Numbered from the stretch's first letter, positions 2,972 to 27,643 are shown. The stretch is 32,000 bases of DNA from Candidatus Electronema aureum (GCA_004284765.1 NQJD01000030.1:344-32343); one strand, 5' to 3'. Notes: generated by a model from the letters alone, not told the origin. A program made the numbers and translations.

Positions 2972-3781
2972 TCAGGCTTTCCGCCTGCTGTTGCGGAGGT
3001 AAGCGACCCAATACACTGCGCCGACCTGCACTGCACCACCAACGATGTTGCCTGCGGTTGACATGATGATGTTAGTCATGCAGCCAAAGACAGAGATCGC
3101 GCCATGGTCATCCAAGATCAGGCCAAAGGGTAGGAAAAACCAGTTCGCAATAGAATGCTCAAAGCCAATGGCGACAAAGGCGGCTACCGGCAAGAAGATT
3201 GCCATGATCTTGTCAATCACGCTACGACCACCCATTGCTAACCAGACCGCTAGGCAGACCAGCGCGTTACAGAGCATCCCCCGGAGAAAAGCCTCGCAGA
3301 GGGTGAGATTAGCCTTGTTCGCCGCAATCTTCACGGCGGTTGCCCCTACTGCCCCACCGTTGATGTCAGCAATTCCAGCCAGCACCACCAGCACCACGGT
3401 GAGGACTGCACCGATTACGTTACCAAGATAGGAGTAGAACCAGTTCCGCAGCACACTGTGGGCGCTAATCTGACCACTGGCCCAAGCCATAGTGAGCAGG
3501 TTATTGCCCGTGAACAGCTCTGCCCCACCCACCACCACCAGAATCAGCCCCAGGCTAAAGCTCAGGCCACCCAGCAAACGGGTCGGGCCGAAACCGAGGG
3601 TAGAGTCGGTTATCACCACCGTGAAGAAGAGCGAGCCAAGGGCGATGAAGGCCCCGGCCAGCATCGCCAGTACCAGCAAGGTCAGGGTGTCAGCATGGGC
3701 TTTTCTCACCCCCATGCTTTCGACCTTACGGGCAATGTCGTCCGGCGAGTAGGCATCGCCTAAGCCTTGTGCGGTTCTCAT
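2972..3781 (-). CDS. formate/nitrite transporter (FNT) family channel
   Basis: 269-aa polytopic membrane ORF with FNT-like layout and motifs (LLGGLSFSLGLILVVVGGAELFTGN, FEHSIANWFF). A strong SD (AAGGAGGAGG) precedes the ATG. Substrate (formate, nitrite or hydrosulfide) cannot be told from sequence. Confidence 0.85.
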   Translation of the reverse strand: MRTAQGLGDAYSPDDIARKVESMGVRKAHADTLTLLVLAMLAGAFIALGSLFFTVVITDSTLGFGPTRLLGGLSFSLGLILVVVGGAELFTGNNLLTMAWASGQISAHSVLRNWFYSYLGNVIGAVLTVVLVVLAGIADINGGAVGATAVKIAANKANLTLCEAFLRGMLCNALVCLAVWLAMGGRSVIDKIMAIFLPVAAFVAIGFEHSIANWFFLPFGLILDDHGAISVFGCMTNIIMSTAGNIVGGAVQVGAVYWVAYLRNSRRKA

Positions 3782-23085: not shown

Positions 23086-26313
<3,228 letters not shown>

Positions 26314-26319
26314 GGCGAA

Positions 26320-26529
26320 CTGTGCGAAAATATTTAAGCTGACAGGCAGCGGTCCTTTTGAAAGGGAGAATGTTCTTTTGCTGGCTGCGAACGGCGCATT
26401 CCGGGCGAAAAACGGCCTGTTCCCGGCTGCGAATGGCCCGTTTGAGGCTGGCAATGACCCATTGCCAACTGACAACGTCGCAGTGCCAGTGTCAAATGCG
26501 GCATTTCCAGCCGGGAACGCCTCATTGCT
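26320..26529. repeat. ten phased 21-bp units filling the carA-carB spacer, each with an AAyG-N3-CrTT palindromic core
   Basis: When cut every 21 nt from 26320, column 8 is A in 10/10 units, column 9 is A in 9/10, and column 11 is G in 9/10. Columns 17 and 18 are T in 8/10 and 9/10. The seven best units span 26383-26529; examples are GAACGgcgCATTC, CAATGaccCATTG and AAATGcggCATTT. Confidence 0.8.
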
Positions 26530-26533
26530 GCTG

Positions 26534-27643
26534 TTATCTCCGCCCTTCCATCAAGCCGATGAAGCGGTCGAAGAGGTAAACGGCATCGTGCGGGCCGGGC
26601 GCGTGTTCCGGGTGATACTGGACGGAAAAGGCGGGGTATTCTTTGTGCCGCATCCCCTCAAGGCTGCCGTCGTTGAGGTTGATGTGCGTGACTTCGACGC
26701 TGGCGGGCAGGCTTTGCGGGTCAACGCAGAAGCCGTGGTTCTGCGAGGTGATCTCCACTTTGCCAGTCTGCAAATCCTTCACCGGCTGATTGCCGCCGCG
26801 ATGTCCGAACTTCAGCTTGAAGGTTGTGCCGCCATACGCCAAGCCGAGCATCTGATGGCCGAGGCAGATGCCGAAGATCGGCTTCTTGCCGAGCAGGGCG
26901 CGGATGTTCTCGACCACGCCTTCCACGCCCGCTGGGTCGCCGGGGCCGTTGGAGAGAAACACGCCGTCCGGGTTCAGGGCCAAAACCTCTGCTGCCGGAG
27001 TTTTCGCAGGCACGACCAGAACGCTGCACCCCTTTTCGGCCAGAATGCGCAGCTGATTGTATTTGATGCCGAAGTCATAAGCCACGACCTTGAACCTGCC
27101 GCCCGCCGGGAAGGTGTGACCTGCGGCCGGGCCACCGTTGCTCCAGGTGTAGGAACGGGCGGTGCTCACGTTTGCCACCATGTCTTGACCAACCAAGCCT
27201 GCCCAGTTCCGCGCTTTTTCCACTAATGAAGCCTCGCTGAGGTCTTCGGTGGAGATGACCGCCTTCATCGCCCCGCGCTTGCGGATGATCCGGGTCAGCA
27301 TCCGGGTGTCGAAACCCTCGATGCCGAGCACCCCGAACTTGCAGAGGAAGTCGGCCAAGGTGCCGCTGGCGCGGTAGTTGCTCGGCACGGCCTGATATTC
27401 GCGCATCAGGAAGGCGCGGGGATGCGCGGCGGCGGATTCCATGTCCTCCGGGTTGATGCCGTAGTTGCCGATCAGCGGGTAGGTCATCGTCACCATCTGG
27501 CCGGTGTAGGAGGGGTCGGTCAGGATTTCCTGATAGCCGCTCATGCTGGTGTTGAACACGATTTCCCCGGCTGCCTCGCCCGCCCCGGTGAAGGAGCGGC
27601 CAGTCAGCACAGTGCCGTCTTCAAGCGCGATTAGTGCTTTCAT
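26534..27643 (-). CDS. carA: carbamoyl-phosphate synthase small (glutaminase) subunit
   Basis: [19 protein letters not shown]-type N-terminus and a class I amidotransferase triad region (GICLGHQ, HGF...H.E). Confidence 0.95.

Follow-up and report, generated by a model that had tools for sequence, protein, structure and literature searches.

A 21-nt Repeat Array Between carA and carB

In the freshwater cable bacterium Candidatus Electronema aureum GS (PMC11976967), carA and carB are separated by a 220-nt spacer that is filled for most of its length with diverged, palindrome-bearing 21-nt repeats, and the question is what this array is and what it does at this position. The spacer (26314-26533) lies between the carA stop codon and the carB ATG (26313); coordinates refer to the window, that is, the whole stretch of 32,000 nucleotides that was analyzed (GCA_004284765.1 NQJD01000030.1:344-32343). 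We propose that the array is a DNA-level platform of phased symmetric sites for a putative binding protein, placed upstream of carB, and give this reading a probability of roughly 0.4. With the same reserve, we take the spacer to carry one member of a dispersed, host-retained and non-coding family of 21-bp tandem arrays.

A first inspection, made from the sequence alone (the original prediction), had cut positions 26320-26529 into ten 21-nt units. Both the sequence and the unit cuts are exactly as transcribed there, and the period is far beyond chance. At lags 21, 42 and 63, the autocorrelation of the spacer reaches 0.477, 0.528 and 0.471; the highest value at any lag had a mean of 0.33 over 2000 shuffles and a 99.9th percentile of 0.39. 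The spacer shows the strongest local periodicity of the whole 32-kb window. Tandem Repeats Finder, run on the window, did not detect the array because its units are too diverged. The motif AAYGNNNCRTT has seven matches in the window, five of them inside the spacer, versus 2.25 expected by chance. A scan for at least four phased AAYGNNNCRTT cores finds the array as a chain spanning 26390-26526, and gave no match in three shuffles of 1.04 Mb.

In carAB sense orientation, every unit consists of a 17-bp dyad, GGnAAYG-N3-CRTTnCC, plus a 4-nt linker (GGCT, CACT, AGTT, AGCC and similar in the window), and the units are arranged head to tail. Of the ten units claimed, seven are well preserved (26383-26529, minus strand; plus-strand boundaries at 26383, 26404, 26425, 26446, 26467, 26488 and 26509). 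They match 7-8 of the 8 specified core positions by hand count and are defined by the lag-21 autocorrelation, the unit table, the phased-core chain and orthologous units in loci L087 and L088, which belong to two other Electronema lineages. Two further units (26341-26382, minus strand) are decayed, with 6 of 8 core positions by hand count, and both are kept in L087; the carB-proximal one (26341-26361) overlaps the start of a conserved leader. The tenth (26320-26340) matches the core at 2 of 8 positions and is part of that carB leader. In a leave-one-out position weight matrix (PWM), the decayed units score 3.5 and 7.6 versus 10.6-18.4 for six of the seven preserved units, while unit 26488-26508 scores just 2.2 although its core is perfect.

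The two perfect palindromes that had been reported are real: CAATGACCCATTG (13 nt, 26452-26464), which is contained in the perfect 17-nt dyad GGCAATGACCCATTGCC (26450-26466), and the perfect 13-nt dyad AAATGCGGCATTT (26494-26506). A repeat search also returned a long imperfect inverted repeat with 49-nt arms that are 73% complementary (26419-26518); it results from unit-unit pairing and underlies a predicted long stem. These three features have no strand assigned. An isolated unit-like site, CTGCAAACGGCCCGTTACC (PWM score 18.3), is found at 398-418 in a short gap between small genes; it does not belong to an array and is compatible with chance.

Conservation and Phasing of the Half-Sites

We aligned 226 distinct units in register. 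Positions A4 A5 Y6 G7 and C11 R12 T13 T14 are invariant, G1 G2 and C16 C17 are usual, and both the centre and the 4-nt linker are free. The halves are mirror images of each other without base-pair covariation: Y6 and R12 combine at random (T-G 90, T-A 82, C-A 22, C-G 13), and at the outer stem positions covariation within arrays is weak (permutation p = 0.04-0.18), slightly better than between units. The half-sites are conserved as sequence and not as pairs, as a symmetric dimer reading double-stranded DNA would leave them.

Rates of change point in the same direction. Paralogous units of the three Electronema arrays differ by 17-23% at the core versus 52-65% at the other positions, and orthologous units by 9.4% versus 20-24% (Fisher p = 0.003). 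Four-fold degenerate sites of carA and carB differ by 17-30%. Judged by these comparisons, the AAYG/CRTT half-site core alone is under purifying selection, the rest of the unit changing at an approximately neutral rate. Four-fold sites ending in A or T differ by 50-70%, and therefore A/T positions are not intrinsically slow here.

Both the 21-bp phasing and the dyad within each unit, as originally described, are real. Spacings between neighbouring units are exactly 21 nt in 231 of 235 cases, and no small indels are found within arrays. The AA/TT steps, 9 and 12 bp apart, follow a 10.5-bp rhythm, with a resultant at 10.5 bp of 0.46-0.61; when compared with 500 shuffles, L222 and L224 exceed the shuffle maximum, while the window, L087 and L088 are at or just below it. 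Given the strict 21-bp register, all dyads and AA/TT steps lie on one face of the helix.

A Dispersed Family at Unrelated Loci

An exhaustive phmmer search with the plus-strand translation matched 16 predicted proteins, and several of these are built of GN(A/E)x(F/L)P heptads; they are open reading frames (ORFs) that were called across 21-nt arrays of this type. When the sense-strand translation was used in a word-indexed protein search, nothing matched. The top phmmer match, P0121, is a repeat protein of 2803 aa and was discarded as a convergent match, not a relative; it consists largely of SNAAFxx heptads and looks like a genuine fibre-like repeat protein. The array in L090 is located upstream of a waaA-like gene, and that in L094 follows a HEPN/nucleotidyltransferase pair.

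Scanning metagenomes with a two-unit pattern yielded at least 120 loci. At least 28 of the metagenome loci have four or more phased cores, on contigs of 36-69% GC; about 93 of 121 pattern matches, among the matches listed, are single sites without periodicity and were set aside as chance. A scan of viral contigs gave one match, also judged to be chance. At least 11 loci are orthologous to one another, the array in each lying upstream of an fn3-domain gene of 202 aa in capsule/exopolysaccharide (EPS) clusters with the order wza, wzz, array, fn3, LamG, wzx; one of them comes from a metagenome-assembled genome (MAG) labelled Planctomycetes. At this site the array is kept across contigs whose fn3 genes are only 67-90% identical. 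Further arrays adjoin Polysacc_synt_2, glycosyltransferase, MFS, MacB, hybrid histidine kinase, solute-binding, dapA and peptidase genes. A Treponema-labelled MAG has an array between mnmE and infA, and an array of about 45 units is present in a contig with a gene for a type-9-secretion tail protein. The family is found in MAGs named to four phyla. Arrays usually lie about 20-260 nt upstream of a co-directional gene; in L216 the array follows a terminator-like hairpin. Young arrays with almost identical units occur in L104, L198, L222 and L224.

No match to the family was obtained by blastn or tblastn in 72,556 plasmids and 50,697 phage records, and the literature searched gave no match for the motif strings or for 21-bp phased intergenic repeats. 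The 21-bp repeat family is apparently undescribed.

Some of these loci show additional features. The start of the 202-aa fn3 gene (ATGGCACGTTTTCCAG, MARFP; L122 717-735, L090 1085-1100) resembles a unit plus one T, and gene start and repeat unit may share an origin. A near-consensus sigma-70-like site (TTGACA, 17 nt, TAGAAT) lies between array and fn3 gene at L122 574-602, within an insertion of about 150 nt that is missing from L219 and L220. In L127, L136, L122 and L179, the upstream part of the array has units of another 21-nt type (TACAATG...CATTGTAAGCT), immediately next to the GGAAATG...TTTCC units. Many arrays have a 42-nt super-period in which the linkers AGTT and AAGA alternate.

A Proposed Platform of Phased Sites Upstream of carB

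Three readings of the array had been offered at the outset: a multi-site operator or wrapping platform, an RNA hairpin array and a variable-number tandem repeat (VNTR). A multi-site platform on a single DNA face fits best, because the half-sites are symmetric without base-pair covariation, the register is strict and AA/TT steps recur every 10.5 bp. As double-stranded DNA, the array would be a row of phased sites for a symmetric, presumably dimeric DNA-binding protein, and this putative protein would cover the bendable array, or wrap it, immediately upstream of the following gene. In Electronema, carB expression could in this way be controlled separately from that of carA, through the shape of an internal promoter region or through a block to read-through from carA.

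Several observations weigh against such a platform. No known operator consensus matches the array. No sigma-70 promoter or terminator consensus is present in the carA-carB spacer of the window, so the array may just be transcribed within the carAB mRNA. The genes around it (in order, waaA, two small ORFs, carA, carB and ftsH) are all on the minus strand, and the arrays of the family mostly lie among genes of one direction. The units differ between strands (AATG...CGTT), and in six of seven locus types this asymmetry runs with the neighbouring genes, a bias that is not significant; together, these observations hint at a role at the RNA level or one linked to transcription. Mutation bias at A/T positions could account for part of the slow evolution of the core. 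In relatives the array has been lost or replaced, and it is dispensable for carAB, since in the sister lineage UBA5173 a 23-nt array without AA/TT phasing has taken its place and locus L089 has none. Because of the missing promoter and terminator consensus, the co-directional genes, the strand asymmetry and the loss in relatives, an RNA-level role and a neutral repeat are both still live rivals of the platform.

Sigma-54 promoter, NtrC-, LacI-, Fur, parS/Noc and Lrp-type consensus sequences were also compared with the array by eye and rejected; the resemblance is partial only and the spacing is wrong.

A Possible RNA-Level Role

The rival that survives best, which we nevertheless regard as unlikely, is that the array acts as RNA: within the carAB mRNA, and in 5′ leaders elsewhere, it would provide sites for an RNA-binding protein or a loose structure that alters the stability, processing or translation of the downstream cistron. 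It would then resemble repetitive extragenic palindromic (REP) sequences and bacterial interspersed mosaic elements (BIMEs) within operons, or the heptamer repeats, which are similarly patchy and have been proposed as post-transcriptional sites (PMC4679880). Besides the gene orientation, the strand asymmetry and the lack of promoter or terminator consensus, folding of the whole spacer gives some support to this possibility, being somewhat better than that of shuffled sequences (z = -2.1 sense, -3.8 antisense). The effect is modest, and it is the antisense strand that folds better. A unit hairpin is predicted for just one of eight window units, the GGCAATGACCCATTGCC unit at 26450-26466 (-9.2 kcal/mol), the other seven forming none. 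G-T and A-C mismatches are equally common (about 108 versus 111, excluding the position used to orient the arrays). A reverse-complement symmetry without covariation is unexpected for an RNA motif, and hairpin arrays do not need strict 21-nt spacing. Rfam gave no match at gathering score in the window, with nothing but noise matches near the spacer, and none at E ≤ 1 in nine array-bearing loci. The array is not a hairpin array, and that part of the original prediction turned out to be weak.

Two more specific RNA structures were considered and abandoned. Two inverted half-arrays forming one long hairpin were dropped, the units being head to tail and the fold z-score modest. T6-G12 wobble pairing combined with a purine-rich centre, taken as sense-strand RNA pairing, failed because the other positions show no strand preference; in addition, the two orientation criteria conflict in L224 and L107.

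The carA-carB Junction in Relatives

The second rival holds that the array has no function: a palindromic 21-mer would have expanded by slippage or unequal recombination in a tolerant gap and would now be decaying while its copy number changes. We consider this rather improbable, and equally so that the likeness between lineages arose from horizontal spread or from a shared expansion bias. Points in its favour come from the carA-carB junction of relatives, for which we compared 80 carA loci with one genome per species. Most Desulfobulbaceae have a carA-carB spacer of 20-80 nt without an array, and L089 (CarA 88% identical) has a short spacer only. The same 21-nt family occupies the same site, with about 16 units, in L087 (CarA 93%, spacer 346 nt) and L088 (CarA 90%, spacer 333 nt). 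In the closest sister lineage, Desulfobulbaceae UBA5173 (L001, L085, L086; CarA 93%), an unrelated array with a 23-nt period is found there (L001 7126-7221), with about 4-5 units carrying the 12-bp palindrome TCATACGTATGA and nearly no AA/TT steps; a remnant of the last 21-nt unit sits downstream of it. The comparison of spacers that had been suggested shows the same family in the two other Electronema lineages, and an unrelated array or short spacers in other relatives. No 21-nt array was found outside Electronema in about 0.9 Mb of carA-centred loci of other species, and the spacers of the other 70-plus species lack it. The phased-array scan of the host genome found one array in the 37.6 kb covered.

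A functionless repeat would also account for the length changes. The array indels that distinguish the window, L087 and L088 are whole units in every case; for instance, the L087 spacer exceeds that of the window by 346 - 220 = 126 nt, exactly six units. Young, near-identical arrays exist elsewhere in the family, and short-period tandem or inverted arrays are common in the intergenic DNA of many of the loci compared. The VNTR that had been envisaged is borne out to the extent that whole-unit length differences exist between species. It does not agree with the ancient divergence of the units, or with the spacer being identical in all three assemblies of the host organism (probably one enrichment strain); with unit differences of 52-65% outside the core and a copy number that varies only between species, the array is not a contingency-type VNTR. 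The carA-carB spacer of Neisseria, put forward as a possible precedent, is length-variable, kilobases long and composed of Neisseria-specific dispersed repeats.

Decay without function is at odds with several observations. The core is kept at 77-83% identity while the other positions are near saturation, and the substitution rate of the orthologous core is about half that of non-core positions. The array upstream of the fn3 gene has been retained while the fn3 genes themselves diverged to 67-90% identity, and arrays have no small internal indels. The arrays are not consistently near a transposase, the nearest Y1 transposase being of IS200 type and not a REP-associated tyrosine transposase (RAYT), and the plasmid and phage collections gave no match.

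Next to carB, a leader (GGACCGCTGCCTGTCAGCTTAAATATTTTCGCACAGTTCGCC; 26314-26355, minus strand) is near-identical in L087 and L088; it can also be recognised in the UBA5173 lineage, where the 21-nt array is missing. These last 42 nt before carB (GGACCGCTGCCTGTCAGC...TCGCACAGTTCGCC) are conserved in four lineages and contain a small GCTG/CAGC stem and no Shine-Dalgarno sequence; a related leader motif is present in L002. The 42-nt leader is outside the array and corresponds to the ancestral short spacer, and it may be a real carB initiation or promoter element. That carB lacks a Shine-Dalgarno sequence, as originally pointed out, is true. The lack is common across Desulfobulbales, including most Desulfobulbaceae with short spacers, and is nothing special to the window locus. 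The carB leaders of Desulfobulbales (L001-L031, about 20 nt upstream of the start) are A/C-rich and G-poor, without Shine-Dalgarno sequence.

Other observations were made at the same junction. In L088, a CAG run at the array border (2230-2244) adds four residues to CarA, which ends in GRGQQQQ, and the CarA called in L089 (4001-5173) exceeds the usual length by 21 residues. In many distant phyla, the carA-carB gap contains tandem heptamer or octamer runs (L032 7112-7201; L033 1213-1298; L046-L048; L051 7130-7215; L072 6716-6773; L075 7123-7242), in which 3-5 copies, a loop and a reverse-complement run would form long periodic hairpins; such runs also occur in other gaps in L028, L048, L051 and L054. 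These inverted runs appear to be a generic class akin to short tandemly repeated repetitive (STRR) or TAACTGA repeats. In the Poribacteria locus L039, a 50-nt unit is tandemly repeated in 6.6 copies and a 27-nt unit in 6 copies, at 2662-2990 and 3573-3733. The carA-carB junction was considered as a repeat hot spot and rejected as such: repeats are about 13x denser per base there than in the loci overall, but this is like intergenic DNA generally, and the same genomes bear such tandem arrays elsewhere.

Operator and Coding Alternatives

A car-specific operator, that is, an ARG-box-like stack for ArgR (or sites for PyrR or PurR) that would place carB under arginine or pyrimidine control, is very improbable. 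Its appeal is that the array is inside the carAB cluster, that the half-sites contain GAAT/ATTC, and that 21 bp is the centre-to-centre distance of paired ARG boxes (PMC6245113). As the original prediction had itself noted, the half-sites are GAA-N7-TTC, 1 bp wider than the GAA-N6-TTC of the ARG box; furthermore, the ARG consensus TGAATWWWWATTCA is absent from 26314-26533 when up to 3 mismatches are allowed. The family adjoins capsule/EPS, transporter, kinase and infA/mnmE genes, which have no arginine or pyrimidine link, and is missing from the carA-carB spacers of the other 70-plus species. The scatter of the 21-mer family over unrelated intergenic regions, which had been named beforehand as the finding that would overturn a car operator, means that this idea falls, and we regard it as largely refuted.

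It is scarcely conceivable that the region is coding, whether for extra N-terminal residues of CarB or for a small protein of G-N-x-x-F/L-P-x heptads. Each strand does have a single frame free of stops over the length of the spacer, that of the sense strand being in carB phase in the window, and at other loci ORFs have been annotated across arrays of this type (P0122-P0136). These frames follow from the unit consensus and are, as had been suspected, a spurious by-product of the repeat. In L087, the frame in carB phase upstream of the carB ATG contains a stop; in L088, the heptad frame is out of phase, with three stops in the carB frame. Changes between orthologous units at codon positions 1/2/3 of the heptad frame number 26/18/24, with no third-position excess. 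The array that the sister lineage has at this site is of 23-nt period, the CarB start MPKRTDI is universal, and the called ORFs extend into sequence unrelated to the array and contain no domain. The array is not translated.

Relation to Known Repeats

Iteron- or centromere-like arrays, such as plasmid iterons, the ParR sites of parC and the dyad-symmetric iterons of the phage lambda origin, are tandem protein-binding repeats of 17-22 bp, about two helical turns; some are palindromic, some lie within ORFs, and they build extended nucleoprotein structures. The array shares with them the size of the tandem repeat and the helical phasing. Their binding proteins, of Rep or ParR type, are encoded right beside them on plasmids or phages, whereas the window array is located on a 2.94-Mb chromosome with metabolic neighbours.

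REPs are 20-40 bp long, have hundreds of copies per genome, alternate in orientation within BIMEs and come with a GTAG or CGTC tag and a RAYT transposase. Like them, the array consists of short imperfect palindromes clustered in gaps within co-directional gene groups. Its units, by contrast, follow each other head to tail at a constant period of 21 bp and without a tag; CGTC was seen in a single soil subfamily alone (L158, L108). REPs and BIMEs have been proposed to act in mRNA stability and in DNA structure (PMC3333891, PMC3733652).

Paired ARG boxes are 18-bp boxes 3 bp apart that present one helix face to an oligomeric repressor (PMC6245113). The ARG boxes bound by ArgR, including those of E. 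coli carAB P2, resemble the array in being imperfect dyads at 21 bp with a carAB link. They differ in number (two boxes per operator, versus nine units in the window and up to about 45 in other arrays), in position (at the operon promoter, versus between carA and carB) and in distribution (promoters of arginine or carbamoyl-phosphate genes, versus EPS, transporter, kinase and infA/mnmE loci as well).

The heptamer repeats (STRR, and TAACTGA of Beggiatoaceae, Cyanobacteria and Bacteroidetes) are intergenic, patchy across phyla and present in up to tens of copies (PMC4679880). As with the array, the downstream genes have no common function and no binding factor is known (PMC4679880). The 21-nt unit is made up of two inverted heptamers (7+3+7+4). 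Heptamer repeats are 7-nt direct repeats usually a few nt from the start codon, whereas the array has a 21-nt unit with an internal dyad and lies 27-69 nt from the carB ATG; the lag-7 autocorrelation of the spacer, 0.30, is within shuffle range. We file the array as a variant of the bacterial intergenic palindromic and tandem repeats.

Genes of the Window Locus

carA (26534-27643, minus strand; 369 aa) was taken from the ORF list, with Pfam CPSase_sm_chain and GATase domains on the identical gene in L081, and its product is 93% identical to CarA of Electronema/Desulfobulbaceae and has an exact counterpart encoded on OW818638.1 of the E. aureum GS assembly GCA_942492785.1; its TAA stop is at 26536-26534, and the array starts 4 nt further on. 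carB (23086-26313, minus strand; 1075 aa) is supported by its translation and by the gene call and Pfam domains in L081, and has the canonical start MPKRTDI. A cluster of insertion sequence (IS) genes is located 6-7 kb past the window end (L081 3116-5742), comprising an IS630-type helix-turn-helix gene, an IS200/IS605 TnpA and a DDE transposase. The Y1 transposase at L081 3621-3983, the only one seen, reaches 112 bits for IS200/IS605 (cut-off 55) and 31.9 bits for RAYT (cut-off 80) in NCBIfam scoring.

Implications

At the level of annotation, the array accounts for a group of "GN(A/E)xFP" heptad ORFs that are listed spuriously in protein catalogues from metagenomes, and in method it illustrates that protein-level searches are able to trace non-coding repeats. 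Should the array be functionless, it would be a clear case of one intergenic site recurrently colonised by unrelated palindromic tandem repeats. At its broadest, and here we are doubtful, the arrays would be targets of a conserved putative DNA-binding or architectural protein that polymerises along 10 to 45 phased dyads and controls capsule/EPS clusters as well as carB of cable bacteria, a new regulatory or architectural system that would be widespread across Desulfobacterota, Spirochaetota, Planctomycetota, Bacteroidota-like and soil bacteria. If the platform reading is true, a row of same-phase dyads under purifying selection would be an unrecognised cis-element common to bacteria of several phyla, a trans-acting factor would be implied, and cable bacteria could express carA and carB unequally.

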